The notes under the pieces are model-generated. The model did no database searches and had not been told where the DNA came from. It was given only the letters and a program-made list of their open reading frames with translations. Below are positions 11,170 through 59,990 of a stretch of 64,000 nt of DNA, in pieces; position 1 is the first letter of the stretch; each line of letters starts with the position of its first letter. The stretch covers positions 75,817 through 139,816 of the forward strand of contig CAVJIV010000003.1 of NCBI GenBank assembly GCA_963649715.1, read 5' to 3'. This DNA is from a bacterium. GTDB lineage: Bacteria > Bacillota > Clostridia > Oscillospirales > Acutalibacteraceae. Both the position numbers and the translations under genes were made by a program.

Positions 11170-11334
11170 AGCAAATCTCCAATCGTATAGACAACCGTGC
11201 TTAAAAGGGTATGAGATTGTCATGATAAGAATATTCTAATAACATGTCGTTTTTTTGTCAATGTCAAAGAATTTCAAACTTTACAAAGGAAACCTCGGAT
11301 TATTATATAATTAGCTTTGAATTGTAGCAAAAAT

Positions 11335-15059: not shown

Positions 15060-15191
15060 TCATATGAGGGGAGTGTTTGCCAGGGTTGCTGTCTTCGGGC
15101 AGCTCAACTTTATAAGCGGTACTAACGTTATACCACTTTAAAGCCGTGGAAGTGATGCTCAAACCTCAAAATTTTAAAGGAGGAATTGAAC

Positions 15192-17112: not shown

Positions 17113-17307
17113 TTATTTCATGTTCTTCTCATAGGATTCGATCATCTTCTTGACCATCTGACCGCCGACAGAGCCTGCCTGCTTAGATGTGAGATCACCG
17201 TTGTAACCGTTAGAAAGGTTTACGCCTACCTCGGAAGCGGCCTCCATCTTGAAACGATCGAGAGCCTCTCTTGCCTGAGGAACAACATTTTTCTTGCTGC
17301 TTGCCAT
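17113..17307 (-). CDS. Alpha/beta-type small acid-soluble spore protein
   Basis: MASSKKNVVPQAREALDRFKMEAASEVGV...LTSKQAGSVGGQMVKKMIE is the SASP alpha/beta signature. ATG at 17307 with a GAAGGGGTGA RBS. The track ORF is over-extended. Confidence 0.9.
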   Translation of the reverse strand: MASSKKNVVPQAREALDRFKMEAASEVGVNLSNGYNGDLTSKQAGSVGGQMVKKMIESYEKNMK

Positions 17308-17469
17308 CTGTATTTCACCCCTTCGCAATTCATTTGCGTTTGCAATTATATCTTTTGCGTTATTCACGGAAATACAACTGAAAAATTTTGTAAATATCAA
17401 GTTGCCATATGGCGATTATTGTGATAAAATAAAAAGTCAGCAAGCTTATTAAACATCGGAGGAATTGCT

Positions 17470-20643: not shown

Positions 20644-21294
20644 ATGGCAAACATCAGAATAGACAACATTTCCGATGATGCGCTGAAAATTGAGCTTGAC
20701 GGCAATGAATATTTTATCCCCGAGGACGAGAGCTTAACGATTCCGACGGAGAAGGGAACGCACCGCCTTGTTGTCTGCCGCACCGAGAGGGCGCAGACCT
20801 CCGAGGACTCTCACGGCGACAAGGATTTCACAAAAAGGTTTTTGAGGGACGAAGAAAGCCAGTATGTGCGGCTCAAGGGCAGCTTTGAGATAAATGTTAT
20901 CGCTTCAAAATCAGTCTGGACAATAAGCAAACGGCCGATGCTTGTTGAAAAAACGGGTGTCGATGCGCTCCTTTCGGGCTGCGAGCTGGATGTTACCGGC
21001 GGCAGGGTGGTTGCCGCAAGGCAAAGCTTTGCCGACAAAAAAATGCGCAACGCATATCTCAGAAGGCAGCTGATAAGCGCATTTTTTCCGATCGGCGTCG
21101 GAATTTTACTTTTCACGGCGCTGGTGATAGCTGCGTTGGCGGCGAACGCTTCGGGCAATCCCATTACGCTCGGCGGCAGAGAATTTACCTATCCGTGGAC
21201 GATCGGGCTGGCTGCGATCGACCTCTGCTTTATCGGATATTTCACATGGATGCTTATCAATATTTTTTCAACCGACAAAAGATTCAGAAGCTGA
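20644..21294 (+). CDS. Hypothetical membrane protein (soluble N-domain plus 2 C-terminal TM helices)
   Basis: 216-aa ORF with a GGAGG RBS. No family recognised. Confidence 0.6.
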   Translation: MANIRIDNISDDALKIELDGNEYFIPEDESLTIPTEKGTHRLVVCRTERAQTSEDSHGDKDFTKRFLRDEESQYVRLKGSFEINVIASKSVWTISKRPMLVEKTGVDALLSGCELDVTGGRVVAARQSFADKKMRNAYLRRQLISAFFPIGVGILLFTALVIAALAANASGNPITLGGREFTYPWTIGLAAIDLCFIGYFTWMLINIFSTDKRFRS

Positions 21295-21355: not shown

Positions 21356-21523
21356 ATTTGTTTTTGGTGCTGAATTTAAACAAAACTTGATTTTTATACA
21401 AAAAAAGTATACAATTCTGTCGCAATATGCTATAATAAATCAATCGTTGCTTGATTTACGGGTGCAGTAACCGTGCTTTCGGTCAATCGACGGTTTAAAA
21501 TAAAAATCGAGGAGAGATTAACA

Positions 21524-23323
21524 ATGAAAAAAAGGATTTCGGCAATTTTTCTGATTGTCGCAATGCTGGTCGGCTTCTGTCTGCCTGCCTCTGCCGCAAC
21601 GACGATGAAGCTGACGGGTGTGACATATCCGACAACAATGAAGGAGGGCGAGCCGTTCATCGCAAAGGGCGTTATCACCTCCGACTACTACATTCGCAAG
21701 GTCGTTATCGGTGCTTACAATTCGAGCGGTGCAGCCGAATTTGAGTACACCGGTTTACCGGGCGAAAAAACCTACGATATAAACAATGTGGATTATCTTC
21801 TGTATTTTTCAAGGCTGAAAAGCGGCAGTTACACCTATAAAATCGTCGCTTCCGACGATAACAGCTCCAATGTTGTGTTGCTGAATCAGAATTTTACCGT
21901 CACAAACGACGGGCAGGCGGCAAGCACATTGAAAATTACAAACGCAAATTATCCGACGGTGCTTGATGTCGGCGAGGGACTTTCCGTAACGGGTGTTGTT
22001 TCCTCAAATTATAATATTTCAAAAATAGTAATCGGCGCATACAAGTCCGACGGAACTAAGGGCTTTGAACAAACCGTGACTCCCGGCGCAAAGAGCTATG
22101 ACCTCAGCAGCATTGATGCGTTGCTCACATTTTCAAAGCTCGGCGCAGGAACATATACATATAAAATCGTTGCAAGCGACGCCGTTAAATCAAATGTTGT
22201 GCTTCTCAACAAGAGCTTTACGGTCGGCGGCGGAACTTCGATTACGGGAGATCTGACAAATGTCAAATGGGATGTTGCCGATATTTCATATTGGAACAGC
22301 GACTATATAAGCTCATGGTCAAAAATCGCAGCCGATTTGGATGCGATTATTCTCAGAATCGGATTTTCTTACACGGGAAGCAAAAAATCCGAGGAGGACA
22401 GCAAGTTTTCGGGATACTACAGCAACGCTAAAAAGAACAATATCCCCGTCGGAGTGTATTTCTACGCCGCAGCTACTACGGCATCCGAGGCAAGCAAGGA
22501 AGCGGATTTTGTCATTTCCCTTTTGAAAAAATATAATTGTCAATTGGAAATGCCGGTTTACTATGATCTGGAAACGGAGGCTCAGGTTGAGCTGACCCAG
22601 TCGCAGTGCACCGATGTGGCAAGAGCCTTCTGCGATAAGCTGAAGGCGGCGGGCTATTTTGTCGGAATTTATTGCAACAAGTATTTTGCAAGAGATGAGC
22701 TTTACGCTTCAAAGCTTTCGGATTTTCAGTTCTGGATCGCCGAATACGGCTCAAGCTGTACCTACAGCGGAGAATACGGAATGTGGCAGTATACCGAGTC
22801 GGGCTGGGTCTCCGGAATCAGTCGCCAATGCGACAAAAACTATTGCTACTACGATTATCCGTCATACATAAAAGCGAACGGATTGAACGGCTTTACCAAG
22901 GCCGCCGACCCGCAGTTCAGCTTCAAGACGGGAACAAATCTCAGCGTAAACGAGAGCAAAAAGGAAGTTTATTTGAAGCAAGATCCGGGCTTGACGGCGG
23001 ATCAGTTTATTTCAAAATATGTCACAAGCAAGGATGTAACGGTTAAGACGGCGGCTTTGTCCTCGGACGGAAAGGTTGCAACGGGCACGACGATCACTGC
23101 CGAGGGCAGCGGAAAGAGCTTCGGCTCTTACGCAATATGCCTTTACGGTGATCTGAATTCCGACTCAAAGATAAATTCTGCCGACGCTCTTTTGATTCTT
23201 CAGCATTCCGTTGGGGTAACGGTTCTTAAGAGCTATGCGCTCACGAGCGCAGACTGGAACGGCGACGGAAAGGTAAATTCCGCCGACGCTCTTGCGGTTT
23301 TGACTTATTCGGTTTCAAGGTGA
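21524..23323 (+). CDS. Secreted GH25 muramidase with two tandem ~120-aa Ig-like repeats and a C-terminal type I dockerin
   Basis: Signal peptide MKKRISAIFLIVAMLVGFCLPASA. Two internally homologous modules (...YTYKIVASDDNSSNVVLLNQNFTV and ...YTYKIVASDAVKSNVVLLNKSFTV). GH25 core (DAIILRIGFSYTG...VGVYFY...YYDLE...FWIAEYG...MWQYTESG). Dockerin duplicate (GDLNSDSKINSADALLIL / DWNGDGKVNSADALAVL). Confidence 0.88.
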   Translation: MKKRISAIFLIVAMLVGFCLPASAATTMKLTGVTYPTTMKEGEPFIAKGVITSDYYIRKVVIGAYNSSGAAEFEYTGLPGEKTYDINNVDYLLYFSRLKSGSYTYKIVASDDNSSNVVLLNQNFTVTNDGQAASTLKITNANYPTVLDVGEGLSVTGVVSSNYNISKIVIGAYKSDGTKGFEQTVTPGAKSYDLSSIDALLTFSKLGAGTYTYKIVASDAVKSNVVLLNKSFTVGGGTSITGDLTNVKWDVADISYWNSDYISSWSKIAADLDAIILRIGFSYTGSKKSEEDSKFSGYYSNAKKNNIPVGVYFYAAATTASEASKEADFVISLLKKYNCQLEMPVYYDLETEAQVELTQSQCTDVARAFCDKLKAAGYFVGIYCNKYFARDELYASKLSDFQFWIAEYGSSCTYSGEYGMWQYTESGWVSGISRQCDKNYCYYDYPSYIKANGLNGFTKAADPQFSFKTGTNLSVNESKKEVYLKQDPGLTADQFISKYVTSKDVTVKTAALSSDGKVATGTTITAEGSGKSFGSYAICLYGDLNSDSKINSADALLILQHSVGVTVLKSYALTSADWNGDGKVNSADALAVLTYSVSR

Positions 23324-33086: not shown

Positions 33087-33638
33087 ATGGCATACGATAT
33101 TGTAAGATGGATAGGCGGAGCGGTGATTTTTGCGGTTCTCGTGACCGTGCTGTGCATCGTTTCAAAGAAAAAAGGCAAGGCGGTTGTTACGGCGGCGTTT
33201 ACGGCGATAATTTTGACGGCGGTTTCGTTTGTTATCCCGTTTGAAAATTATGTTCACCCGTTCGATTCGGTCGAGAAGCTTTTTGCCTATAGGTATCATG
33301 AGGAATTGATAACATATTTTGAGTGTGATGAGGGCGTTGTGTGCATCGCCGGACGGAACAACGGCAGCAATGTTAACTATTGCTTCAACAGGGACGGTGA
33401 AAAATTATTGCTTCCGTTTTCATTGATGGACGATACTCAGCATCGCTCCAGCAAGTACGGAGTTTTTCTTATCAAAAAGTTTGAAAATCAGAACCTGATT
33501 TTTACTCAGGTAGACGATGTAAAATATGACGATAAGGACTTTCTCGACGGCGGCTCAGGCTATTACTATTTCGTAGTGGACGGCAATTTCATTCCGTCAC
33601 GCCTGACCTGCAACGGCGAAAAGGTTGTGCTTGTATAA
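33087..33638 (+). CDS. Hypothetical membrane-anchored protein
   Basis: 183 aa with a good RBS (AAAAGGAG) and two N-terminal TM helices. No family recognised. Confidence 0.55.
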   Translation: MAYDIVRWIGGAVIFAVLVTVLCIVSKKKGKAVVTAAFTAIILTAVSFVIPFENYVHPFDSVEKLFAYRYHEELITYFECDEGVVCIAGRNNGSNVNYCFNRDGEKLLLPFSLMDDTQHRSSKYGVFLIKKFENQNLIFTQVDDVKYDDKDFLDGGSGYYYFVVDGNFIPSRLTCNGEKVVLV

Positions 33639-35928: not shown

Positions 35929-36015
35929 GCAGGAGTGGCGGAATCGGCAGACGCGCTAGATTCAGGTTCTAGTGAATGCAAGTTCATGAGGGTTCAAGTC
36001 CCTTCTCCTGCACCA
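35929..36015 (+). tRNA. tRNA-Leu (anticodon CAG), class II with long variable arm, encoded CCA
   Basis: GCAGGAGTGGCGGAATCGGCAGACGCGCTAGATTCAGGTTCTAGTGAATGCAAGTTCATGAGGGTTCAAGTCCCTTCTCCTGCACCA. The acceptor stem is GCAGGAG/CTCCTGC, the anticodon stem-loop is CTAGA-TTCAGGT-TCTAG, and the T-loop is GGTTCAAGTCC. Confidence 0.95.
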
Positions 36016-36017
36016 GA

Positions 36018-36045
36018 AAGAGTCGCTTGGGCGGCTCTTTTTTTA
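36018..36045 (+). terminator. Intrinsic terminator after the tRNA
   Basis: AAGAGTCGCttggGCGGCTCTT followed by TTTTT. Confidence 0.75.
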
Positions 36046-36147: not shown

Positions 36148-36176
36148 TTTACATTTACGATTAAATATGTTATATT
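36148..36176 (+). promoter_or_regulatory. Candidate promoter of the kinase/STAS/MATE/NRPS operon (TTTACA-17-TATATT)
   Basis: TTTACA at 36148-36153, a 17-nt spacer, then TATATT at 36171-36176. A CACTTCacaatagGGAAGTG hairpin follows in the roughly 85-nt leader. Confidence 0.45.
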
Positions 36177-36255
36177 ATCATTAAATTAGCACTTCACAAT
36201 AGGGAAGTGTTGTCATTTGCCGTAGGAAATCAAACCGGTATCCTGAAAGCGAGGG

Positions 36256-36669
36256 ATGATTATGTGCTCTCTTTGCGTTGAGGCGATAAAGGAAAACCTG
36301 AGCGATGTTATCGATTTTGTCACGAAGCAGCTCGGCGAAGACGCTGACGAAAAAATCCGTTTTGAATTTGAGCTGATTTGCGAGGAGATTTTCGTCAACA
36401 TTTGCAGCTACGCTTACGGCGAAAAAATCGGCGAAGCAGAAATCAAAATCGACAAATCGCCGGACGGAATCGTTATAAAATTTATTGACGGCGGCAAGGA
36501 ATTTGATCCGCTTAAAAAGCCGAATCCCGACATTGAAGCTCCGCTTGAGGATCGATGCAGCGGGGGTCTTGGGATATTTATCACAAAGAAATTATCCGAC
36601 CGGCTTCTGTATAAAAGAGAGGACGGCAGGAATGTTCTGACGGTTATAAAGGCAACGCCGCACAGGTGA
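36256..36669 (+). CDS. RsbW/SpoIIAB-like anti-sigma-factor-type serine kinase (HATPase_c)
   Basis: 137 aa, or 135 aa if the second ATG at 36262 is used, which fits the GAGGGA RBS better. N box EEIFVN, G1 IDGGKEFDP and G2 SGGLGIFITKKL are all intact. Confidence 0.8.
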   Translation: MIMCSLCVEAIKENLSDVIDFVTKQLGEDADEKIRFEFELICEEIFVNICSYAYGEKIGEAEIKIDKSPDGIVIKFIDGGKEFDPLKKPNPDIEAPLEDRCSGGLGIFITKKLSDRLLYKREDGRNVLTVIKATPHR

Positions 36670-36736
36670 GCCTTTGCTGACCGCCGAACGAAATACAGCA
36701 AATTTTCGCCAATTCAGCTCACTGGAGGTAAAATAT

Positions 36737-37045
36737 ATGGAAATCAACAAAGCTATCAGCAACCAAAATGTTATCATCACGCTTAAGGGTCGCCTTGACA
36801 CAATGACGGCTCAGCAGCTTATCGGTGAGATAAGCGACATTGATTATGACGAGGTGGAAACCGTAACGCTCAATTTTAAAGACCTTGAGTATATTTCAAG
36901 CTCGGGACTGAGAGTTATTCTCTCGCTTTACAAAAACCTCAAAAGCAACGGCGGCAGCCTGAAAATCGTCAATGTCAACAATATGATAATGGAGCTTTTC
37001 TCGATGACGGGAATGCGTGATTTTCTTGATATCGAGCAGGCATAA
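36737..37045 (+). CDS. STAS-domain anti-sigma-factor antagonist (SpoIIAA/RsbV-like)
   Basis: MEINKAISNQNVIITLKGRLDTMTAQQL...FKDLEYISSSGLRVILSLYK, which carries the conserved phosphorylatable serine context. ATG at 36737 after GGAGG. Confidence 0.88.
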   Translation: MEINKAISNQNVIITLKGRLDTMTAQQLIGEISDIDYDEVETVTLNFKDLEYISSSGLRVILSLYKNLKSNGGSLKIVNVNNMIMELFSMTGMRDFLDIEQA

Positions 37046-37059
37046 GCCAAGGAGTTAAA

Positions 37060-38817
37060 ATGAGCAGTACGACACTTGGCAGGAACGCCGTGACCGTCAA
37101 CAAAAAATATGCGGAATATTTTCTTCCGACGGTTCTGACGGCTATGGCAACAAATATTGCAACGATCGTTGATTCGATCATTGCCGGAAATCTTCTCGGA
37201 CAAAGCGCACTTGCGGCAATCAGCCTTATGTCGCCGATTTCTCAGCTTTATTTTTCAATCACGATTCTTTTCGGGCTGGGAGCGTCCTCTATAATTTCTT
37301 TTGCAAAAGGAAAGCGAGACGACAAGCAGGCGGATAGGGTTTTCACTTCGACCTTTATCGTGCTCGTTGCGCTCAGCGTGATTTTTATCGCAGTTCAGCT
37401 GCCGCTGGCGGATACGATATGCTCCCTCCTGACGCAGGACGCAGAGCTGAAATCATTGCTGTATCAATACTATGTTCCTTTCATAATAGGAACACCGGTC
37501 TATCTTTTGCTTATGTGCTCCGTTTATTTTGTCAGGGCGGACGCAAGACCCAAGTTTGCTTCAAACATTGTGATTATCGCCAATGCTGTAAAGCTGGGAC
37601 TGGACTATCTTTTTATGGGCGCATTGAAGCTCGGCATTGCCGGCTCGTCGATTGCAACCGTGCTGGGATATATCGTCGGCTTTGTGATAATGTCAACGCA
37701 CTTTATAACGAAAAAAAGCACGCTTCATTTTGATTTTTCAATTCTCGGAAATCCGCCCGAATTTTTCAAATCTCTCGGCAGAATGACGACGATTGGAGTT
37801 TCGGGTGCGCTCGGAACGATGCTCATAGCGGTCAAAATGCTGTTTTTGAATACAATTATTCAGAGCGCGGGCGGAAGCGCAGGCATGGTTTCCTATTCCG
37901 TATGCTCGTCAAGCCAAATCTTTATGTCGATGTTTATCACGGGCGCAAGCCAAACGATGATACCGATCATCGGAGTTTGCCTCGGCGAAAAGGACTATGA
38001 CGGAGTTCGCTATGCGTTCCGCAAGGCGGCAAGGGTGCTTGCCGTTTCGAGCGTTGTGATCATGCTGTTCCTGTGCGCAGCTCCCGAACCGATAATCAAA
38101 TTTTTCGGAATAAACTCTCCCGAGGATATTGCAAACACGGTTCCGGCGCTGAGGATCAATGCGATATCCTTCCCCGGAATGGCGTTCTCATTCCTGCTGC
38201 TTTATTACTATATGGCAACGCAAAAAAGAGCGATTTCAACCGCAATTTCGGTTATAAACGGAATAGTTATAATCATACCGTCGGCGTTGATTCTTTCAAA
38301 ATTTTTCGGTATCACGGGCGTTTGGCTTTCGCTTGTTGTGTCGCAGTTCGGAACGCTCGTCGTCGTTTATTTCATCGACCTCGTCGAAAAGAAAAAATCC
38401 GGTGGAAAATATAAAAGCTTCTATCTTCTTGAAGAAACGGAGGATAACGAGATCCTTTCGCTTTCGTTTAAGGGAACAAAGGAAAATGCGGCAGGCGTTT
38501 CGCTCTATCTTTCCTCTTTCCTTGCGAAGAACGGAATTGAGGAGCTTCGTGCGAACAGAATTGCGGTCGCCGTTGAAGAGATGGCAGCCGACTGCGCAGA
38601 AAGAATGAAAAACAAAAAGAAAGACGCCGACATTGATATAAGAATTTTTTCCGACAGGGACGGAACCGTTATTTCGGTTCGTGATAACGGCGAGGAGTTC
38701 AATCCGCTCGACGGTGAAAAGCAGGAGCCGAATCCGCTCAGCGTCGTGAAAGCGATTTCGGAAAAAGTGGAATATTCGCGAGTAATCGGTTTTAACCGTA
38801 CAATAATTAAACTTTAA
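37060..38817 (+). CDS. MATE family efflux transporter fused to a C-terminal degenerate RsbW-like (HATPase_c-type) domain
   Basis: Residues 1 to about 440 form a 12-TM MATE protein (FLPTVLTAMATNIATIVDSIIAGNLLG...). Residues from about 455 to 585 align with the 36256 kinase (AVEEMAADCAERM / ISVRDNGEEFNPL / SRVIGFNRTIIKL). It is one uninterrupted ORF. Confidence 0.85.
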   Translation: MSSTTLGRNAVTVNKKYAEYFLPTVLTAMATNIATIVDSIIAGNLLGQSALAAISLMSPISQLYFSITILFGLGASSIISFAKGKRDDKQADRVFTSTFIVLVALSVIFIAVQLPLADTICSLLTQDAELKSLLYQYYVPFIIGTPVYLLLMCSVYFVRADARPKFASNIVIIANAVKLGLDYLFMGALKLGIAGSSIATVLGYIVGFVIMSTHFITKKSTLHFDFSILGNPPEFFKSLGRMTTIGVSGALGTMLIAVKMLFLNTIIQSAGGSAGMVSYSVCSSSQIFMSMFITGASQTMIPIIGVCLGEKDYDGVRYAFRKAARVLAVSSVVIMLFLCAAPEPIIKFFGINSPEDIANTVPALRINAISFPGMAFSFLLLYYYMATQKRAISTAISVINGIVIIIPSALILSKFFGITGVWLSLVVSQFGTLVVVYFIDLVEKKKSGGKYKSFYLLEETEDNEILSLSFKGTKENAAGVSLYLSSFLAKNGIEELRANRIAVAVEEMAADCAERMKNKKKDADIDIRIFSDRDGTVISVRDNGEEFNPLDGEKQEPNPLSVVKAISEKVEYSRVIGFNRTIIKL

Positions 38818-38865
38818 GCAGTCGCCGAACAGACGGGGACTGCATAACGAACGGAGTTGACCATA

Positions 38866-41800
38866 ATGGAAAATTTGACTGAAATGCTTGACGCCTGCAA
38901 GGAAGAAAAAAGGGAGCTTTATCCGCTCACGCCCAGTCAGATGGGAATTTATCTTTCGTGTATGCACAATCCGCAGGGCACTATGTACAATATTGCCTGC
39001 TCTTTCCGTTTTGATAAGGGAGAGATCGACCTTGACAGATTGAAGATGTCTGTCAAAAAAGCGGTTGACAATCACCCCATTACCAAGGCTTTTATAGATA
39101 ATTCCACGGGAAGTCCGATGATGAAGCTTCGCAGCAGCATTGATATTGACATTCCCGTTATGCAGGTTGACGACCTTGAAAAGGCTGCCGAGGATTTCGT
39201 AATACCGTTTGACCTCGAAAATGATGTTCTTGTTCGTTTTGTCGTTTTTGAATGCGGCGACAAAGACATGTTTGTCATGAATCTTCACCATATTATTTTT
39301 GACGGCACATCGGTTACGGTATTTTGCGACGATATTTCGCTCGCCTACGACGGAAAAGAGCTTCCGCCGGAAAAATTCACGCAGCTTGAGCTGGCTGTTT
39401 TTGAAGAAAAGCTTGAAAGCACCGAGACTTACCGAGAGTCAAAGGAATATTACGACAATATTTTCTCCGCCGTTGAAGAAAAATCTGAAATTACGGAGGA
39501 TTTTGCCGAAAAGCCCGAGCTTGAGGACAAGCCTGCCGCCCTCTTTGAGGTGACGACGGAGGGCAGATTTTCCGTTGACGCCGTGCGCAGTTTTGCACGG
39601 GAGCTCAATATAACCCCCTATACCGTCTTTCTCGGCGCATATGAATACGCAGTCGCAAAGTTCACCAATCAGAACGAGGCGACCGTGTGCACCGTTACCC
39701 ACGGCAGATTCGACAAGAGGCTTGCAAACACCGTCGGAATGATGGTTCGCACTCTTCCGATGCACGCAGATATTGACGAGGAAACCTCCGTCTGCGATTT
39801 CCTTAAAAATGTGCGTAAGAGCATAACCGAAACCGTCAAAAACGATTATTACCCGTTCATGAAGCTTGCGGCGGACTATGACCTTTCCGCCGACATTATG
39901 ATGGCTTATCAGGGCGGCAATATATTGAATTCGATCAAGCTCGGCGATCGATCCTTTAAAATAGGGCTTTTGCCGTTCAAGAGCGCCCTTGCAAAAATAA
40001 ATGTTATGGTGTTTGAATCGGGCGAAAATTTCACCCTGCGCTTTGATTACAGAAGCGATTTGTTCAGGGAGGAAACCATCCGCTCGTTTGCCGATTCATT
40101 CATAACGATAATCGAACAGTTCCTTGAAAAAGAAAAGCTTTGCGAGGTCGAGCTTGTGAGCAAGCAGCAGCTTGCCTTGCTTGACAGCTTCAACAAAACC
40201 GAAGTCCCGTATGACGAGAGCAAGACGATTGTCGATTTGTTTGAGGAGAGCTGCAAAAAAGCTCCCGAAAATATCGCCGTTGTTTATAAAGAAAAGAAGC
40301 TTACCTATGCCGAGGTAGACGAAAGCACGGATCGCATTGCCGGCTTTGTTCATTCAAAGGGTATCGGCAAAGAGGATGTTGTTGCGATCCTCATTCCGAG
40401 ATGCGAATATATGCCGATCGCAGCGCTCGGCGTTATGAAGGCGGGAGCTGCTTATCAGCCCCTTGACCCGTCATATCCGACCGAAAGATTGCAATTCATG
40501 GTCAAGGACGCAAACGCAAAGCTCTTGATTGCGGACGAGGGTCTGCTCGAGCTTCTGCCGAATTACGAGGGCGAGATTCTTCTCACAAAGGATATTCCGA
40601 GCCTGCCGAAGACGATTCCCATGTCCGAGAGGCCGTCACCGGAGGATTTGTTTATCCTTATCTACACCTCCGGCTCAACGGGCACTCCCAAGGGAGCTAT
40701 GCTTGAGCATCGGAATTTGCACGCAATGTGCAGAACCCATATAAGAAATTATGATATTACTGCTGACAGCATTTGCGCATCATATGCCAGCTACGGCTTC
40801 GACGCCTGCCTTATGGAGATGTACTGCCCCCTTGTTGTCGGTGCGCCGCTCCATATTATTGATGAGGATATCAGGCTCGACCTTGTTAAGCTGAACCGAT
40901 ATTTTGAGGATAACGGTATCACCCAGGTCTTTATGACAACGCAGGTTGCAAGACAGTTCGCAACCGAGATCGAAAACCATTCGCTCAAGCATCTCATAAC
41001 CGGCGGAGAAAGGCTTGTTCCGCTTGAGCCGCCGAAGAATTTTGAGCTTGTCAATATTTACGGTCCGACGGAGTGTATAGTTTATATCACATCGCAGAGG
41101 GTCGATAAGCTCTACGACAGAGTCCCAATCGGAAAAGCGGTTGATAATGTCAAGCTTTACATAATCGATAAATACAACAGGCGGCTTCCCGTCGGCGCAT
41201 TGGGCGAGCTTTGCGCTTCGGGCAATCAGGTTTCAAGAGGATATCTCAACCGTCCCGAGCAGACCGAAAAGGTATACGGAAAGAACCCCTACTGCGATGA
41301 AAAGGGCTACGAAAGATTTTATCACACGGGCGATATCGTTCGCTTTACCGATGACGGCAAGGTGGACTATATCGGCAGAAATGACGGTCAGGTAAAGATC
41401 AGAGGCTTCCGTATCGAGCTTTCCGAGGTCGATAAGATTATCCGCAATTACGATGGAATTACCAATTGCGCCGTGGTTGCCAAGGCTCTTGAGGGCGGCG
41501 GACAGTGCATTAACGCATACATTGTTGCCGACAGAGAAATCGACATTCAAAAGCTCAACGAGTTTATTCTGGAGCACAAGCCGCCGTATATGGTTCCCGC
41601 CGCCACGATGCAAATCGACGCAATTCCGCTCAATGTAAACGGCAAGCTCGACAGGCGCAAGCTTCCCGAAATCAAGACGGAAGCCGCCAAGAAGAAAAAT
41701 TCCGCACCGAGAGAGCTTACCTTCCTCGAAAAGAAAATTTCGGGCATTGTGGAAAAGGTCATCGGACACAATGATTTTGATGTTTCCGAAAATCTCATCA

Positions 41801-44800
41801 ACGCCGGCATGACCTCACTTTCCGTCATCAAGCTCGCAGTTGAGCTTAACAAGGCTTTTGGATTTGAGTCGCAGGTTAAAAAGATGATGAAGGGCTGCTC
41901 GATTCTTTCGATAGAGGATGAGCTTCAGGAGTTCATTTTCAGCGGCGCGATGAAGACACAAGCCGCCGAGGCAAAAGAGAAGAAAGAGCGCAAGGCTTTT
42001 TATCCGCTCTCAAAAACTCAGCTCGGCGTGTATATCGACTGCATGAAAAATCCGTACAGCACGATTTATAATATCCCGTCCGTTATCACTTTTTCAAAAT
42101 CAACCGATTCGCAAAAGCTTGCCGATTGCATTGCCCGAATCATCAAGGCTCACCCATACATCATGACGGGGCTTACGCTTGAGAACGACGAGATCGAGCA
42201 GAAATATGTTGACTCGGCAGAGCCGGACATCTCCGTAAAGAAGCTTACGGAGGAGCAGCTTGAAGCATACAAAAAAGATTTTGTGAAGCCGCATAATCTG
42301 ATGAAATCGCCGTTGTTCAGAATTTCCGTTGTCGAAACGGAAAAGGCTGTTTATCTGCTTTGGGATTTCCACCACATTATCTTTGACGGAGCGTCCGTCG
42401 CCTTGTTCCTTGAGCAGCTCAAGACCTTGTATGAGGGCGGCGAGATCGAGCCTGAGGATTACACATACTTTGACTATGTTGAAGATGAAACAAAGGCGGA
42501 AAACGGAGAAAGCTACAAAAATGCGGAAAAATTCTTCGACGATATGATGGAGGATTTTGAATCCGCAAGCGAAATTACGGCAGACCTCCGAGGCCATGCG
42601 ACGGACGGCAGACTTGCTTCGCAGGCAGTTCCCGTGGATATGGCAAGGGTAGAAAAATTCTGCTCTGAAAACGGAGTTACGCCGGCTCACCTTTTCCTTG
42701 CCGGAACATTCTATGCCGTTTCAAGATTTGTGAATAGCAGGAATGTATATATAAGCACAATCAGCAACGGCAGGAGCGATATACGGCTCACAAACTGCTT
42801 CGGTATGTTTGTAAAAACTCTTGCGCTCGGAATCGAGGTTGAGGATATAACCTCACTTGACTTTGTCCGAAAGAGCAAGGCGGTTTTCACGGGGGCGATA
42901 GAGAACGAGATTTATCCCTATACCGAGCTTTGCACAAAATACGGCTATGCGCCGAACATCATGTACGAATATCAGCTCGGCGTTGTTGACGAAATGAAAA
43001 TAAACGGCGAAGCGGTTCTCTGCGATTACCTTGAAATGGACACGGCAAAGTTCAAAACGGCCGTTCATATCGAGGAGCACGAGGGCAAGCCGAGCGTTGT
43101 GGTTCAGTATAACGATGCGCTTTACAGCGGCGAGATTATGAAAACGCTTGCAAAATCCGTTCTCTGCGCCGTTGAGCATATAATCGAAAACCCGAACGGA
43201 AAAATCAGAAAGGTTTCGCTTCTTGATGACGATGCGCTGGCGCAGCTTGACCGCTTCAAATCCAGCGAGATTGTTCCCGTCGAAACAAAGATACTTCATA
43301 AAATGATAGAGCAGCAGGTTGCCAAAACTCCCGAAAGGATTGCATTGGTTGCCTGCGACGGCAAGCTGACATACAAAGAGCTTGACCGCCTTGCAAATAT
43401 CACGGCAAACTCCCTCATCGAAAGGGGAATCAAAAAGGGCGGAAAAGTTCTCCTGTTGCTCAGCAGAACCTCAAGGTTCTTCACCTCGCTTCTCGGCGTT
43501 CTCAAGGCTGGCGGCGCATTCATTCCGTCGTGTCCGGAATATCCGAAAGAGCGAATAGAAAGCATTATTGAGGATAGCAACGCCGACTTCGTTATCACGG
43601 AGGGCGAGCTGCTCGACAGATACGAAAGAACCGTTGACGCTGCGGAGCTTCTTTCCGGCACGAACGACAGCAACCCGGGCGTTGAGGTTCAGCCCGAGGA
43701 TCTTGCATATCTTATCTATACCTCAGGATCAACCGGCAAGCCGAAGGGCGTTATGCTCCGTCATATAGGCATCGCAAACTACCTTGCATACAGCAAGGCG
43801 AATATTCAGGGCAAGACGGTTATTGAAAGCTGCCATACATACGGCTCGGTAACAACCATCAGCTTTGACCTGTCGCTCAAGGAAACCTTGCTTTCGTTCT
43901 GCCACGGACTTACGCTCGCCTTTGCAAGCGACGATCAAACGCTCAATCCCGTTGCGCTTGCAAAGTTCTTTAAAGAAAACAATGTTGATGCGTTCAACTC
44001 TACGCCGTCACGACTTTTGCAGTATATGGAGCTTGAAGAGTTCACACAGGCAATGGCAAACTGCAAGGCGATACTTTCCGGCGGCGAAAAATATCCAGAC
44101 AAGCTGTTGAAGATCCTGCGGGAAAAAACAAACGCAACTATCATCAACACATACGGTCCGACGGAGATCACCGTTTCCTCAAACGCAAAAGATCTCACAA
44201 ATGCGGATGCTATCACGGTCGGCAGACCGCTGCGCAATTACACGGAGTATATCGTTGACGCGGACGATAATCTTCTTCCGGTCGGAGTTGTCGGCGAGCT
44301 TCTCATTCAGGGCTGCGGCGTGGCGCTCGGCTATATGAATCTTCCCGAACAGACGGCGAAAGCCTTCGTTGAATTCAAGGGCGAACGCACATACCGCTCC
44401 GGCGACTATGCAAAATGGACGGCAGACGGCGAGGTTGTTATTCTCGGCAGAACAGACAATCAGGTTAAACTGAGAGGACTGCGCATTGAGCTTGGCGAGA
44501 TTGAGAAATGTCTGACGGCTCTTGACGGAATCAAAACCGGAATTGCGCTTATAAGAAAGGTCGGCAAAACCGACGCCATCTGCGTTTACTACACGGCGGA
44601 AAGGCAGCTTGACCCGGAGGACATCAAGGCTCAGCTCAAGAAAACCCTTACGGATTATATGGTTCCGAGCGCATATGTTCAGCTTGACGCAATGCCGCTC
44701 ACCCCGAACGGCAAGGTCAACACAAAGGCTCTCCCCGAACCGAAGCTTGACAAGGCGGGAAGCGGACAGCTTCCGAAGAACGAGCTTGAAAAGACATTCT

Positions 44801-46209
44801 GCGATATTTTTGCGGAAATTCTTGAGCTTGACACCGTGTTTGCGGACGAGAATTTCTTTGACATCGGCGGCACATCGCTTACGGCAACCAGAATTGTAAT
44901 TTCTGCGTCGAAGAAAAACATCGAGCTTGCATATAACGAGGTCTTTGAGAATCCGACGCCGCAGGCTCTTGCAAGGTTCATCAGTAAGGACGATTCGGGC
45001 AAGAATGATATTGATGACATTGAAAATCTCTCGGATTACGACTACACAAACATCAACGAGCTTCTAAAGAAGAACAACATCGACTCGTTCAGAAACGGAG
45101 AGCGTCAGGAGCTTGGCAATGTTCTGCTGACAGGACCGGCAGGCTTCCTCGGAGTGCATATTCTCTATGAGCTGCTTCATAAATATAACGGCAAGGTTTA
45201 TTGCCTGATTCGAGACAAGAACAATAACCCTGCCGAAAGTCGATTGAATTCGATCTACTATTATTATTTTGAGGAGAGTCTCAAGGAAAAATATCCCGAC
45301 AGAGTTTTTGCTGCGGACGGCGATGTAACTAACCGTGCTTGCTTTGACGAGCTTCTTGATAAGGACATCAACACGGTTATCAACTGTGCCGCAAATGTTA
45401 AGCATTTCTCAAAGGGCACTGATATTGAGGATGTTAACCTGTACGGAACTCTCAATGTGCTCGATTTCTGCAAGGCGGCAAACGCACGGCTTGTCCATGT
45501 TTCAACGATGAGCATCGGAGGAATGTTTGTCGGCGAGAAAGGCCCTGTCGAAAGGCTCAGGGAGGATCAGCTTTATTTCGGTCAGTATGAAGGCTCAAAA
45601 TACACGCTGTCAAAGTTCCTTGCCGAAAGGGCGATACTTGAAGAGGCGTCGAACGGCTTCAATGCAAAGATAATGCGCGTCGGCACGCTTGCTGCACGAA
45701 ACAGCGACGGCGAATACCAGATAAACTTCACCACCAACACATTCATGGGCAGACTGAAATCCACACTGCTCATCGGCAAATATCCGTATGAGGCGATGGA
45801 AATGCCGTTTGAGCTTTCGCCGGTAGATTTTGTTGCAAAGGCGATACTTCTGCTTGCGCAAGCTCCGAAGGAGTGCACGGTGTTCCACCCGTTCAACAAC
45901 CATACCCTCATTATGGGCGATCTTTATACCGAGATGAACAAGATAGGGCTTCATTCGGAGGGTGCGGAGCACGACGAATATATGGCTGCGCTCGATAGGG
46001 CGGAGCAGGATCCCGAAAAGGCAAAGATTTTGTCAAGCATGATTGCGTATCAGAATATGGCGCACGGACAGAAAACATTCACCGTCGCCAAGAGCAACGC
46101 ATATACAATGCAGGTTCTCTACAGAATGGGATTCATGTGGCCGGTTACATCGTTCGACTATATGAAACGATTCATCAACGCTTTGAGAGGTCTTGGCTTC
46201 TTTGATTGA
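38866..46209 (+). CDS. Bimodular nonribosomal peptide synthetase, C-A-T-C-A-T-R (terminal thioester reductase)
   Basis: 2447 aa from the ATG at 38866. Approximate nt spans: C1 38910-40170 (HHIIFDGTS at ~39286); A1 40230-41680 (LIYTSGSTGTPKG, FDACLME, NIYGPTE, YHTGD, GRNDGQVKIRGFRIEL, NGKLDR); T1 41720-41920 (NAGMTSLSV); C2 41990-43250 (HHIIFDGAS); A2 43300-44745 (LIYTSGSTGKPKG, FDLSLKE, NTYGPTE, YRSGD, GRTDNQVKLRGLRIEL, NGKVNTK); T2 44790-44990 (IGGTSLTA); R 45115-46200 (LLTGPAGFLG Rossmann, YxxxK as YTLSK). Confidence 0.97.
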   Translation: MENLTEMLDACKEEKRELYPLTPSQMGIYLSCMHNPQGTMYNIACSFRFDKGEIDLDRLKMSVKKAVDNHPITKAFIDNSTGSPMMKLRSSIDIDIPVMQVDDLEKAAEDFVIPFDLENDVLVRFVVFECGDKDMFVMNLHHIIFDGTSVTVFCDDISLAYDGKELPPEKFTQLELAVFEEKLESTETYRESKEYYDNIFSAVEEKSEITEDFAEKPELEDKPAALFEVTTEGRFSVDAVRSFARELNITPYTVFLGAYEYAVAKFTNQNEATVCTVTHGRFDKRLANTVGMMVRTLPMHADIDEETSVCDFLKNVRKSITETVKNDYYPFMKLAADYDLSADIMMAYQGGNILNSIKLGDRSFKIGLLPFKSALAKINVMVFESGENFTLRFDYRSDLFREETIRSFADSFITIIEQFLEKEKLCEVELVSKQQLALLDSFNKTEVPYDESKTIVDLFEESCKKAPENIAVVYKEKKLTYAEVDESTDRIAGFVHSKGIGKEDVVAILIPRCEYMPIAALGVMKAGAAYQPLDPSYPTERLQFMVKDANAKLLIADEGLLELLPNYEGEILLTKDIPSLPKTIPMSERPSPEDLFILIYTSGSTGTPKGAMLEHRNLHAMCRTHIRNYDITADSICASYASYGFDACLMEMYCPLVVGAPLHIIDEDIRLDLVKLNRYFEDNGITQVFMTTQVARQFATEIENHSLKHLITGGERLVPLEPPKNFELVNIYGPTECIVYITSQRVDKLYDRVPIGKAVDNVKLYIIDKYNRRLPVGALGELCASGNQVSRGYLNRPEQTEKVYGKNPYCDEKGYERFYHTGDIVRFTDDGKVDYIGRNDGQVKIRGFRIELSEVDKIIRNYDGITNCAVVAKALEGGGQCINAYIVADREIDIQKLNEFILEHKPPYMVPAATMQIDAIPLNVNGKLDRRKLPEIKTEAAKKKNSAPRELTFLEKKISGIVEKVIGHNDFDVSENLINAGMTSLSVIKLAVELNKAFGFESQVKKMMKGCSILSIEDELQEFIFSGAMKTQAAEAKEKKERKAFYPLSKTQLGVYIDCMKNPYSTIYNIPSVITFSKSTDSQKLADCIARIIKAHPYIMTGLTLENDEIEQKYVDSAEPDISVKKLTEEQLEAYKKDFVKPHNLMKSPLFRISVVETEKAVYLLWDFHHIIFDGASVALFLEQLKTLYEGGEIEPEDYTYFDYVEDETKAENGESYKNAEKFFDDMMEDFESASEITADLRGHATDGRLASQAVPVDMARVEKFCSENGVTPAHLFLAGTFYAVSRFVNSRNVYISTISNGRSDIRLTNCFGMFVKTLALGIEVEDITSLDFVRKSKAVFTGAIENEIYPYTELCTKYGYAPNIMYEYQLGVVDEMKINGEAVLCDYLEMDTAKFKTAVHIEEHEGKPSVVVQYNDALYSGEIMKTLAKSVLCAVEHIIENPNGKIRKVSLLDDDALAQLDRFKSSEIVPVETKILHKMIEQQVAKTPERIALVACDGKLTYKELDRLANITANSLIERGIKKGGKVLLLLSRTSRFFTSLLGVLKAGGAFIPSCPEYPKERIESIIEDSNADFVITEGELLDRYERTVDAAELLSGTNDSNPGVEVQPEDLAYLIYTSGSTGKPKGVMLRHIGIANYLAYSKANIQGKTVIESCHTYGSVTTISFDLSLKETLLSFCHGLTLAFASDDQTLNPVALAKFFKENNVDAFNSTPSRLLQYMELEEFTQAMANCKAILSGGEKYPDKLLKILREKTNATIINTYGPTEITVSSNAKDLTNADAITVGRPLRNYTEYIVDADDNLLPVGVVGELLIQGCGVALGYMNLPEQTAKAFVEFKGERTYRSGDYAKWTADGEVVILGRTDNQVKLRGLRIELGEIEKCLTALDGIKTGIALIRKVGKTDAICVYYTAERQLDPEDIKAQLKKTLTDYMVPSAYVQLDAMPLTPNGKVNTKALPEPKLDKAGSGQLPKNELEKTFCDIFAEILELDTVFADENFFDIGGTSLTATRIVISASKKNIELAYNEVFENPTPQALARFISKDDSGKNDIDDIENLSDYDYTNINELLKKNNIDSFRNGERQELGNVLLTGPAGFLGVHILYELLHKYNGKVYCLIRDKNNNPAESRLNSIYYYYFEESLKEKYPDRVFAADGDVTNRACFDELLDKDINTVINCAANVKHFSKGTDIEDVNLYGTLNVLDFCKAANARLVHVSTMSIGGMFVGEKGPVERLREDQLYFGQYEGSKYTLSKFLAERAILEEASNGFNAKIMRVGTLAARNSDGEYQINFTTNTFMGRLKSTLLIGKYPYEAMEMPFELSPVDFVAKAILLLAQAPKECTVFHPFNNHTLIMGDLYTEMNKIGLHSEGAEHDEYMAALDRAEQDPEKAKILSSMIAYQNMAHGQKTFTVAKSNAYTMQVLYRMGFMWPVTSFDYMKRFINALRGLGFFD

Positions 46210-46345: not shown

Positions 46346-46891
46346 TTATTCTTCAACGAAATCTGCTTCCGTGATTATTTTTGAGTAAAGGTCAAGAGCC
46401 TTGTTGAAAATTTCTGCGCCGAGAGCAATGTATTCGTCGTTTGTTGTTCCGCATCTGAGGGCGAATTGTTCGCCGAGATTTTTTGCGGTTTCTCCGCTCT
46501 TTTTAAGAGCAAGGAGGTAAAAGGTGAATGCGCTGCCGTCGGAAATATTGTCGTAATAGCCGGCTTCCTCGGCTTTGAGATAGTTATACATCGAGGCGCT
46601 CGCAGCGTCGCCGAGCGTTGCGGATGAAATATATTTGCGCACGGCATATTCCGCAGTAAAGGTCAGCAAAACACGCACGCAGTAAAGCTCCGAAGCGGGC
46701 ATATTGTCGATATCCAGTCCGAGCTTTTTGCAATCGGGACGGATTTTTGCAAGTCTGATGCCGAGAGCCTTCGCCTTGTCGCTGTTTCCGTTTCTTTTGT
46801 TGCGGTCAATATCTTCGGAAAGCTTTTGAATATCGTTCGATTCCGATCTTCCGCTGCCTTCATAAATTTTAATATCTCTGTCCTCTGCCAT
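46346..46891 (-). CDS. Hypothetical soluble protein (181 aa, helical, no family recognised)
   Basis: Clean ORF, convergent with the NRPS and 17 nt downstream of the PHP gene. Confidence 0.6.
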   Translation of the reverse strand: MAEDRDIKIYEGSGRSESNDIQKLSEDIDRNKRNGNSDKAKALGIRLAKIRPDCKKLGLDIDNMPASELYCVRVLLTFTAEYAVRKYISSATLGDAASASMYNYLKAEEAGYYDNISDGSAFTFYLLALKKSGETAKNLGEQFALRCGTTNDEYIALGAEIFNKALDLYSKIITEADFVEE

Positions 46892-53448: not shown

Positions 53449-54264
53449 ATGCCGCAAAAAGAAATTGACGAAAAAAGATACGAAGACGGACTTGCCGAGC
53501 AGCCGCCGGATTTTGATCCGCAGCTCGGCGAACACCGTTCCCCCGTTCTGATGAGGGTAATGCTTGCAATCGTTAACCTTGCCTCGCTTATCTTTGCGCG
53601 CTCCTTTTTGCAAAGCTGGTACAGCGTGCACGGAACAACCCCTGCGTGGATTCCGCTTGTCTTTTTGCTGATTCCGCTCGGCTCGCTGTTTTTTATCTAT
53701 TATTATATGGGCAGAATAGGCAGCGAACGAATAATAAAGCTTATTTGCTTTGCCGTCTGCATTTTGCATATATCAAATCTGTTTTCACCGATCGATTCAA
53801 AGCAGATATCTCTCGGCAGGGAGGGCTTTTCCTCGGATTTCGGCTATGTTACCGAGGCAGGGAATGCGATAGGAACGGCTTTTCCGTCCGGCGGAAGTGC
53901 AACCACGGTTGACGGAGTCGGAATAGAAAATGAAAACGACAACATCTTCGCTTCGATAAAAGCTTTTTTGAAAAGAGAGAAACTTTATTCATGCACGGAT
54001 GTGGTTTATGAGCCTGAGCAGACGCAGGAATTTGAAAGCTTTATTGAAAAATCTCCTCTGTGGCTGAGCGAAATTCCGGAAGAAATTAAAGATATGAAAT
54101 ATTCGCTCGTTGACGCTTCAAGCTACGATTATTATATTTTTTACGATTGCGACGGCAAGGTGTATAACACGCTTCCGCAATCGGGCAAGCACACCGTCTA
54201 TCAGGTGATGTATAATTCGCAGAACCACGGAATGCGGATTTTGAAATACACTAAAAATTTTTAG
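53449..54264 (+). CDS. Hypothetical membrane protein (3 TM helices plus a C-terminal soluble domain)
   Basis: 271-aa ORF. No family recognised. Confidence 0.55.
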   Translation: MPQKEIDEKRYEDGLAEQPPDFDPQLGEHRSPVLMRVMLAIVNLASLIFARSFLQSWYSVHGTTPAWIPLVFLLIPLGSLFFIYYYMGRIGSERIIKLICFAVCILHISNLFSPIDSKQISLGREGFSSDFGYVTEAGNAIGTAFPSGGSATTVDGVGIENENDNIFASIKAFLKREKLYSCTDVVYEPEQTQEFESFIEKSPLWLSEIPEEIKDMKYSLVDASSYDYYIFYDCDGKVYNTLPQSGKHTVYQVMYNSQNHGMRILKYTKNF

Positions 54265-58099: not shown

Positions 58100-58255
58100 A
58101 TAACTCCTTTCACAGCATTACCTGATCAAAGAAAATCGCCCGACGGATATACCGCCGGGCGTAGATTTTACTTCAATAGCTTCCTACGTCGGTATTATCC
58201 GAATCAGGTTAAGGGTATAATCTCAGCCGATTTCTCAGCACCCCTGCTGTTGCAA
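58100..58255 (-). promoter_or_regulatory. TPP (THI-box) riboswitch with terminator expression platform
   Basis: Reverse strand: CAGGGGTGCTGAGAAATCGGCTGAGATTATACCCTTAACCTGATTCGGATAATACCGACGTAGGAAGC. The terminator CGCCCGGCGGTatatCCGTCGGGCG + ATTTTCTTT follows. Confidence 0.88.
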
Positions 58256-59714: not shown

Positions 59715-59985
59715 CATAAAAAACAAAAACTCCTGTCCCGACAACATTGCCGGGACAAGAGATATACTCCTGCGGTGCCACCCTGCTTGACACATTTTCG
59801 TGTCCACTTAGCTCGTACCCCATTATACGACGGTTATTGTTAACGGAGTACCCTCTCCGTCTTGCATACTTTTAGTTCTGCTCGCCCTCGGAAGTCCATT
59901 CAACTCTGCTTTTCACACTGTATCGCACCGAACTACAGCTCTCTGAAGCGTCCGCCGGAGTCTACTTACTCTCCCTCATCGGTTT
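59715..59985 (-). promoter_or_regulatory. T-box leader, Trp specifier (UGG)
   Basis: Reverse-strand elements: AGAGAG...GGTGCGA; specifier context GAATGGAC with TGG at 59898-59896; T-box AGCAGGGTGGCACCGCAGGAG; terminator CTCTTGTCCCGGCAATGTTGTCGGGACAGGAG + TTTTTGTTTTTT. Confidence 0.85.
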
Positions 59986-59990
59986 ACTGC

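Follow-up and report, generated by a model that had tools for sequence, protein, structure and literature searches.

A MATE exporter with a degenerate RsbW-fold tail, recurrently encoded beside a STAS protein, an RsbW-like kinase, and a nonribosomal peptide synthetase

Partner switching is the textbook mechanism of sigma-factor control, and only a handful of outputs other than sigma factors are known. These include SiaB-SiaC (SiaABCD) of Pseudomonas aeruginosa, SypE-SypA of Vibrio fischeri, BtrU/V/W of Bordetella, RbaV/W of Rhodobacter, and HenR-All4160 of Anabaena, in which an RsbW-like kinase and a PP2C phosphatase set the phosphorylation of a STAS protein, whose unphosphorylated form is often the active output (PMC8256260; bioRxiv 10.64898/2026.04.08.717354). 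STAS domains also act on transporters at the post-translational level, as in the case of the C-terminal STAS domains of SLC26/SulP transporters and of MlaB on the MlaFEDB ABC transporter (PMC8256260, PMC7367683). The locus described here lies in a 64,000-nt stretch of an Acutalibacteraceae genome (GCA_963649715.1, contig CAVJIV010000003.1, forward strand 75,817-139,816; hereafter the window, to which all the coordinates refer) and consists of four co-directional open reading frames (ORFs; 36256-46209) that code for an RsbW-like serine kinase, a STAS protein, a MATE exporter fused to a C-terminal RsbW-fold domain (the tail), and a nonribosomal peptide synthetase (NRPS).

The 585-aa fusion protein (37060-38817, +) is composed of the exporter core with 12 transmembrane (TM) helices (residues 1-446; 37060-38397), a linker that runs from the last TM helix to the tail (residues 447-463; 38398-38448), and the tail itself (residues 464-585; 38449-38817). 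Domain searches were performed with Pfam profiles on the window ORFs of at least 90 aa, including precomputed matches, and also with NCBIfam profiles, and recover in this protein two MatE repeats (113.9 bits), TIGR00797 (163.8 bits, cut-off 147.4), and, in the tail, HATPase_c_2 at residues 473-557 (35.4 bits, cut-off 27.4, profile positions 4-89 of 127), close to the location (residues ~455-585) anticipated by a preliminary description of this DNA. In the AlphaFold2 (AF2) model, the membrane part matches PfMATE (6hfb) with a Foldseek E-value of 1.5e-16 and a target-normalized TM-score of 0.89, and it also matches VcmN and DinF (target-normalized TM-score ~0.9) and ClbM; with its two MatE repeats, 12 TM helices, and MATE fold, the core is a member of the MATE family (MOP superfamily), and none of the matched solved MATE structures covers the tail. 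The full-length model has a predicted local distance difference test score (pLDDT) of 89.2, a predicted TM-score (pTM) of 0.89, and a confident linker, devoid of secondary structure (pLDDT ~86-90). The combination of high pTM and confident linker hints that the tail packs against the cytoplasmic side of the pump.

The tail modeled separately, from an alignment of 40 tails, adopts a b-a-a-b-b-a-b-b topology (pLDDT 89.7, pTM 0.83), and its top Foldseek match is RsbW of the RsbV/RsbW complex (6m37, E 3e-7), with further structural matches to SpoIIAB (1tid, 1th8, 1l0o), the mycobacterial UsfX, and the Pseudomonas SiaB. TM-scores against the top PDB matches range from 0.64 to 0.75, and the fold is of the Bergerat-type alpha/beta class. 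Hence, both the HATPase_c-type match and the RsbW/SpoIIAB fold, on which the preliminary description had made its proposal depend, are found. That description had also aligned the tail with the neighboring kinase, and this relationship holds (27% identity over 136 columns, E 3e-9), with the qualification that the tail has lost the G2 box and is thus a degenerate version of the kinase. Specifically, the window tail carries D511 in place of the N-box Asn, keeps the G1 box (RDNGEEFNP), and reads NPLSVV where the kinase has the G2 sequence GGLGIF, while its lid region is ~15 residues shorter than that of the kinase. A complete ATP site, made of N-box Asn, G1 Asp, G2 GxGxG, and lid, is thus missing from this copy.

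These losses are shared across the family to different extents. In a census based on hmmalign, the G2 box (GG.G) is found in none of 54 unique tails and in 20 of 20 unique kinases linked to such clusters; the N-box Asn, invariant in the kinases, is present in 37 tails and replaced by Asp in 10, including the window copy, and the G1 Asp is present in 46. The wider motif set of 83 full-length fusions follows the same pattern. Moreover, the two kinds of domain are well separated by their own profiles: tails reach 102-151 bits with their own profile and 37-99 bits with that of the kinases, and the reverse is true for the kinases, with the sole exception to the tail range being the second, convergent MATE-tail copy of locus L060 (76 bits). 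The ratio of nonsynonymous to synonymous substitution rates (dN/dS) of the tail is 0.01-0.08, which indicates strong purifying selection. Altogether, motifs and models point to a conserved domain of RsbW fold that is probably catalytically dead, namely a pseudokinase, in which nucleotide binding appears unlikely for the window copy and possible within the wider family. The tail is, in any case, a paralogue of the kinase and not a stand-in for a sigma factor.

The soluble kinase (36256-36669, +; HATPase_c_2, 67.4 bits) is 137 aa long, or 135 aa if translation starts at 36262, and has intact N (EEIFVN), G1 (DGGKEF), and G2 (GGLGIF) boxes; the corresponding EE..N, D.G..F, and GG.G residues are kept in all of the 20 cluster-linked kinases of the census. 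The adjacent gene (36737-37045, +) codes for a 102-aa, single-domain STAS protein (STAS 64.7 bits, STAS_2 40.8 bits; 77.1 bits against the anti-sigma-factor antagonist superfamily TIGR00377, cut-off 53.45) with the motif LEYISSSGLRVI. The putative target is the second Ser of YISSSG, since YISSSGLR probably aligns with the stretch of SpoIIAA that holds its phospho-Ser (DSSGLG), and the motif YISS[SA]G[LV]R is kept across all the cluster-linked STAS homologues inspected. On both proteins, the preliminary description proved accurate: an anti-sigma-type HATPase_c kinase with its three boxes and a 102-aa STAS protein with a putatively phosphorylatable Ser, the two components expected of a partner-switching module, are present. 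Purifying selection also acts on both, with a dN/dS of 0.13-0.20 for the kinase and of 0.06-0.07 for the STAS protein in close pairs (0.20 in one divergent pair), and the evolutionary rate of the kinase is two to three times that of the tail and of STAS; the idea that the kinase is a decaying pseudogene was rejected on account of its dN/dS and intact motifs. Orthology to the classical regulators is not supported by NCBIfam, given that the scores are far under the equivalog cut-offs for RsbW, RsbV, SpoIIAB, and SpoIIAA: the best match of the kinase is RsbW (NF003144, 24.2 against a cut-off of 145), and the STAS protein reaches 65.8 bits against spore_II_AA (TIGR02886, cut-off 114.75).

The four genes are separated by gaps of 67, 14, and 48 nt, the last measured to the NRPS ATG at 38866, and no convincing terminator is found between them. 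Upstream, the unit is bounded by a tRNA-Leu(CAG) gene (35929-36015, +; ARAGORN and Rfam tRNA) directly followed by a terminator-like hairpin (36015-36042, +), and a consensus scan retrieved, as a pattern with 10 of 12 matches, a candidate promoter of the sigma-70 type (36148-36176, +) that reads TTTACA-17-TATATT and has the TG of an extended -10 element. Coordinates, spacing, and promoter-like site are therefore as previously described, and the same is true for the reported lack of a sigma factor and of a PP2C/RsbU/SpoIIE-type phosphatase in the 64 kb: no window ORF of at least 90 aa matches the Pfam Sigma70, SpoIIE, or PP2C domains, and tblastn with the sigma factor and the PP2C of a relative returned no match in the window. 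Accordingly, of the usual components of a partner-switching module, the PP2C/SpoIIE-family phosphatase and a sigma factor as the alternative partner of the kinase are both missing from this stretch.

The fourth gene (38866-46209, +; start alternatively at 38857; 2447 or 2450 aa) codes for an NRPS with a C-A-T-C-A-T-R layout, in which Pfam identifies two Condensation, two AMP-binding, and two PP-binding domains, followed by NAD_binding_4, that is, a terminal reductase of the aldehyde-releasing type. Along its whole length, the protein shares 80-81% identity with the NRPSs of L014 (Ruminococcus bromii ATCC 27255) and L011 and, because of this identity to the R. bromii NRPS, it is assigned to what is in all likelihood the same dipeptide-aldehyde (ruminopeptin, rup) family of gut Clostridia, with which it also shares the domain layout. 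Clusters of the rup type were mined from human gut metagenomes, and studies on them have addressed chemistry and protease targets (Schneider & Balskus 2018; Guo et al. 2017; reviewed in PMC12327764). The isolation of the R. bromii product from cultures and from in vitro reactions failed (PMC12327764). It is plausible, with the balance tipped neither way, that the four genes form one operon that makes and exports a ruminopeptin-type dipeptide aldehyde.

The genomic neighborhoods of homologous fusions indicate how far these genes travel together. About 60 loci were inspected; those with sufficient DNA on their flanks represent ~20 different lineages or arrangements, and in these ~20 the MATE-tail gene neighbors an NRPS or a phosphopantetheinyl transferase (PPTase) in 18, a STAS gene in 12, a kinase gene in eight, a PP2C gene in five to six, and a sigma factor gene in one (L015). 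Kinase, STAS, and MATE-tail recur with an NRPS in lineages that are 30-35% identical and in at least five gene orders. The order kinase-STAS-MATE-tail-NRPS is that of the window and of the R. bromii clade; it is preceded by a membrane PP2C gene in L017 and by a gene for a PP2C-kinase fusion in place of the separate kinase in L028, whose proteins are 31-34% identical to those of the window. L034 has MATE-tail and STAS overlapping by 8 nt and followed by NRPS and PPTase, and in the low-GC loci L036, L042, L052, and L057 a divergent PP2C-kinase-STAS group, transcribed with STAS first, stands beside NRPS and MATE-tail genes, with the NRPS first. In L035, the gene for a single 786-aa protein (P0089; 888-3248) comes after the reductase end of an NRPS and before the STAS gene; in P0089, the MATE exporter and its degenerate tail are continued by a HATPase_c_2 kinase of the canonical type, in which GGLG is present. 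Lastly, L015 (5613-9985), from a metagenome-assembled genome (MAG) of Acutalibacteraceae, has the order PP2C-kinase-sigma-(PPTase)-STAS-MATE-tail-NRPS, where an extracytoplasmic function (ECF)-type sigma factor of 175 aa (Sigma70_r2 and r4_2) begins 22 nt after the kinase gene, a reversed PPTase gene precedes STAS, and the PP2C is of the membrane SpoIIE type. This is the sole sigma factor that adjoins any locus surveyed, so the homologous loci do not consistently encode a sigma factor, an arrangement that would have told against the earlier proposal.

The fuller modules include the phosphatase, as PP2C adjoins the kinase in L015, L017, L028, L036, L042, L052, and L057; in L015, L017, and L057, its N-terminal part crosses the membrane several times. 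The R. bromii clade has lost the PP2C gene, and L009 and L019 have lost the kinase gene; more generally, STAS occurs without the kinase in L009, L019, L034, L043, and L047-49, and the kinase without STAS was never seen among the ~60 loci. In L048 (69-1194), and likewise in L047 and L049, two ORFs resemble, by translation only, a split transposase of the IS200/IS605 family (TnpB-like). In these three loci, the transposase-like ORFs lie beyond STAS and an intervening membrane-protein ORF, where relatives have kinase and PP2C, and this position suggests that the two genes were lost through an insertion. The contents of two further loci are recorded here: L010 (10887-12462, -), from a close relative, harbors an additional kinase-STAS pair that is divergent (44% and 40% identity to the window proteins), with overlapping genes located beside an alpha/beta hydrolase gene downstream of the NRPS, and L060 (12050-13759, -), on a low-GC metagenome contig, harbors the second MATE-tail gene mentioned above, convergent and just downstream of an NRPS-MATE-tail operon.

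The family extends to Archaea. A metagenome scan was seeded with P0331 (WP_407422535.1), a 582-aa homologue named as a Methanobrevibacter MATE transporter, whose tail scores 112.8 bits, and yielded 29 loci with a GC content of 29-37%. The MATE-tail of one of them, L036, is 87% identical to P0331 and is flanked by genes for deoxyhypusine synthase, an archaeal-type riboflavin synthase (TIGR01506), and a TfrB-like subunit of the coenzyme M/coenzyme B fumarate reductase, all with matches above or near the curated cut-offs; on the strength of these flanks, L036 is assigned to a methanogen. To our knowledge, Archaea do not use sigma factors, and it follows that an archaeal module maintained under selection (47-87% identity) must have a target of another kind. 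A cluster of this sort had been noticed in Methanobrevibacter ruminantium M1, where two genes for serine phosphatases, one for an anti-sigma-factor antagonist, and one for a MatE protein lie around the NRPS gene mru0068; the genes mru0066-mru0071 are possibly of bacterial origin, and the flanking genes were read as "regulating NRPS expression" (Leahy et al. 2010, PMC2812497). The mru0068 protein has two modules, and its terminal domain is a thioesterase in the main text and a thioester reductase in the legend to Figure S8 of the same paper (PMC2812497).

Comparative genomics thus gives good support to the wiring of the kinase/STAS module to the pump, as judged from gene order and recurrence. 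The preliminary description had proposed a kinase/STAS pair wired to a MATE exporter with no sigma factor, and the linkage itself is upheld by its recurrence and by the archaeal copies; however, it had also set as a test whether the fusion usually occurs without an adjacent STAS/kinase pair, and by this test the pair is accessory rather than obligatory, as STAS is present in 12 of the ~20 arrangements and neither gene in eight. PP2C, in turn, is part of the fuller modules. Two further elements of that proposal are not supported. The transporter tail was suggested to take the place of the sigma factor, and it is instead a copy of the kinase, which makes the STAS protein the likelier switching partner; the gating of export by ATP/ADP levels is pure speculation for a tail that has no G2 box and, in the window copy, no N-box Asn either.

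The reading that we favor, for which confidence and doubt are about equal, is that the STAS protein switches between the kinase and the pump tail and that the output is export rather than transcription. The tail would descend from a Ser kinase of the RsbW/SpoIIAB type and, having lost G2 and part of the lid, would bind STAS without phosphorylating it; such a copy could hold STAS stably because RsbW-fold domains bind unphosphorylated STAS partners. Unphosphorylated STAS would dock on the tail and alter the activity of the pump, and the soluble kinase would phosphorylate the STAS Ser and thereby release STAS from the tail. In the fuller modules, the membrane-anchored PP2C would restore active STAS upon a signal at the membrane, while in the window either the phosphatase would be encoded elsewhere in the genome or the switch would be biased to phosphorylated STAS. 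In the tail-kinase fusion, the kinase would be held at its site of action. What the data show are the identities of the domains, their folds, the loss of motifs, purifying selection, and a conserved linkage of the genes that extends to a gene fusion and to archaeal copies; the binding of STAS to the tail, its phosphorylation by the kinase, and any influence on transport are steps that we infer. This switch would account for the order in which the components are retained, namely pump tail, then STAS, kinase, and PP2C, and for the loci with STAS and no kinase, the tail-kinase fusion, and the archaeal copies.

Several observations weigh against it. The shortened lid may remove part of the surface by which SpoIIAB contacts SpoIIAA, the pTM is an indirect sign that the tail is docked, and the full cycle cannot be run from local genes, as no PP2C is encoded in the window. 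In L015, an ECF-type sigma factor is located directly after the kinase. Furthermore, eight of the ~20 arrangements (L020, L021, L024, L026/27, L029/30, L032/33, L061, and the P0047 contig) have the MATE-tail with neither STAS nor kinase nearby, and two of these (L029/30 and the P0047 contig) also have no NRPS, from which it follows that the tail has a function independent of a STAS protein encoded in cis.

Other explanations assign different roles to the same parts. If the tail took the sigma position, which was the second option of the preliminary description, the kinase would heterodimerize with it, much as RsbW and SpoIIAB homodimerize, and fix the pump in a single state, and unphosphorylated STAS would bind the kinase and remove or rearrange it. 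Tail and kinase are paralogues with 27% identity, the structures of RsbW and SpoIIAB are dimeric, P0063 has two tail-like domains in tandem, and the joining of MATE, tail, and canonical kinase in P0089 is a Rosetta-stone sign of adjacent action. Yet a kinase acting as effector is hard to reconcile with a STAS gene beside the MATE-tail in five kinase-free lineages and with a kinase that never occurs without STAS; in addition, the kinase in the fused protein is unable to leave, and the kinase shows a two- to threefold faster evolution compared to the tail and STAS, so that this arrangement is regarded as quite unlikely. By another account, kinase and antagonist are a conventional anti-sigma pair that acts on a distant sigma factor or regulator of the NRPS operon, with an unrelated role for the tail. 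The match of STAS to TIGR00377, RsbW as the best NCBIfam match of the kinase, and the gene for an ECF-type sigma factor that L015 carries 22 nt past its kinase gene agree with it, as do the interpretation of Leahy et al. that the same neighborhood serves in "regulating NRPS expression" (PMC2812497) and a spore-forming host that possesses alternative sigma factors, as marked by a gene for a small acid-soluble spore protein (SASP) in the window. This conventional wiring, too, is unlikely: a sigma factor occurs in just one of the ~20 arrangements and nowhere in the 64 kb, the module is kept on archaeal contigs, the scores are far under the RsbW, RsbV, SpoIIAA, and SpoIIAB equivalog cut-offs, and both the RsbW-fold domain on the exporter and the tail-kinase fusion are left unexplained.

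The tail might, lastly, be an autonomous regulatory or docking domain, used for nucleotide or metabolite sensing or as a tether for the NRPS, beside a kinase/STAS remnant in decay. This would fit with the stronger linkage of the MATE-tail to NRPS/PPTase (18 of ~20) than to STAS (12) or kinase (8), with the fusions that exist without NRPS and STAS (L029/30 and the P0047 contig), with the N-box and G1 residues kept in most tails, and with the erosion of the module, i.e., the loss of PP2C in the R. bromii clade and of the kinase in L009 and L019 and the replacement of both by an insertion sequence (IS)-like element in L047-49. It is, however, improbable, more so than either of the preceding two, because the kinase and STAS of the clade are under clear purifying selection with all the catalytic motifs and the target Ser intact, and because they have stayed linked to the MATE-tail through repeated rearrangement and a transfer from one domain of life to another. 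Returning to the STAS switch, its broader form is held tentatively, and with less confidence than the local one: a cassette-borne device in which STAS, cycled by an RsbW-like kinase and a membrane PP2C, would dock on the dead-kinase tail of a MATE pump and gate the export of a reactive peptide aldehyde post-translationally and without any sigma factor, also in methanogens.

The tail itself defines a large and distinct subfamily, the full-length members of which are nearly all MATE fusions, mostly 570-610 aa long. An exhaustive HMMER search with the tail retrieves 330 representatives at 50% identity (E <=1e-3); among the 150 representatives listed, ~80 are 540-620 aa long with the match at residues ~440-585 and are MATE fusions, and the rest are mostly shorter and fragment-like. 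The named database entries of the fusion are labeled only as "MATE family efflux transporter". The short tail-like matches were considered as possible free-standing proteins and rejected, as they either start at the last TM helix or derive from contigs that are short or carry frameshifts. In some assemblies (L003:8726-10486 and L006), the MATE-tail gene is broken up into genes for a 407-aa MatE protein and a 161-aa protein that begins at the last TM helix; such splits, which explain the short "tail-only" entries, are probably assembly errors or pseudogenes of some strains, and L006 is rich in frameshifts. Among individual entries, P0005 (227 aa, on a 1.5-kb contig) joins a ferredoxin-/ETF-like sequence to the last 100 residues of a tail and is likely an assembly chimera, P0038 (1557 aa) was discarded as a chitin-binding repeat protein with a spurious match, and P0063 is a MATE fragment with the two tandem tail-like domains already mentioned.

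As for the host, an identical fusion protein is present in the MAG assembly GCA_963646275.1, and proteins of the Ruminococcus bromii/Ruminococcoides group, including that of R. bromii ATCC 27255, are 85-96% identical to it. The four-gene cassette lies between tRNA-Leu/rsmE/rsmF and a PHP-domain gene in the window and between AzlCD/SbcCD and a LytTR regulator in R. bromii, and this difference in the flanking genes indicates that it behaves as a unit that moved relative to its neighbors. AzlC/AzlD, directly upstream of the cassette in R. bromii (L003:6295-7333), are found 25 kb off in the window (10130-11223). The window also contains the alpha/beta-type SASP gene, a spore-former marker (17113-17400, -), and genes for two dockerin-bearing proteins, one with GH25 (21473-23323, +) and one with a weak, sub-threshold CBM_2 match (61920-62657, -), which presumably fit an R. 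bromii-like organism. Three RNA elements on the minus strand score above the Rfam gathering threshold, namely a T-box leader upstream of a PALP enzyme gene (59748-59988), a thiamine pyrophosphate (TPP) riboswitch that precedes the gene for a thiamine transporter of the ThiT/YuaJ type (58164-58255), and a small signal recognition particle (SRP) RNA (1863-1960). Five ORFs, of 596 aa (15186-16976, +), 216 aa (20644-21294, +), 271 aa (53449-54264, +), 181 aa (46346-46891, -), and 183 aa (33087-33638, +), have no significant Pfam match; two of these lie immediately beside the wider cluster region.

If the proposed switch is true, a pump that itself bears an anti-sigma-kinase domain in degenerate form would add a new type to the outputs of partner switching and would be one of the rare examples of a MATE transporter controlled after translation, and the interaction surface, being built into the target, would be easy to study. 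Should the phospho-switch block export or production, Ser-to-Ala alleles of STAS or deletions of the tail could unlock the R. bromii product. The archaeal copies show, in turn, that a signaling module of bacteria can be passed on to, and retained in, organisms that lack its classical target.

No account of a MATE pump with an RsbW-fold pseudokinase, or of partner switching aimed at a MATE pump, was found in the open-access literature; the gene neighborhood was already reported in 2010, with a transcriptional reading and without the tail (PMC2812497). The archaeal loci L036, L042, L052, and L057 have the same layout as mru0066-mru0071, but the MatE protein was treated there as a plain exporter with no mention of the kinase-fold tail (PMC2812497), and the window cluster differs from the M. 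ruminantium one in having a kinase and no phosphatase. With the RsbW-RsbV-sigmaB and SpoIIAB-SpoIIAA-sigmaF systems, the locus shares the small HATPase_c_2 kinase with N, G1, and G2 boxes, the single-domain STAS protein with a conserved Ser, the SpoIIE-family PP2C of its fuller relatives, and the RsbW/SpoIIAB fold of the tail; in contrast to them, it has neither sigma factor nor PP2C in the window, its module is also found in Archaea, and its membrane exporter carries a further kinase-fold domain, in degenerate form, as a fusion. SiaB, of the SiaB-SiaC pair, is among the structural matches of the tail, but none of the non-sigma systems covered in PMC8256260 and bioRxiv 10.64898/2026.04.08.717354 has a transporter as output or a pseudokinase receptor for STAS built into the target. 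Finally, as in SLC26/SulP transporters and MlaB, a STAS fold would act directly on a membrane transporter; in those systems, STAS is fused or stably bound and has no kinase-fold partner, whereas here it is the transporter that carries the kinase fold, and STAS is a separate protein that can probably be phosphorylated.

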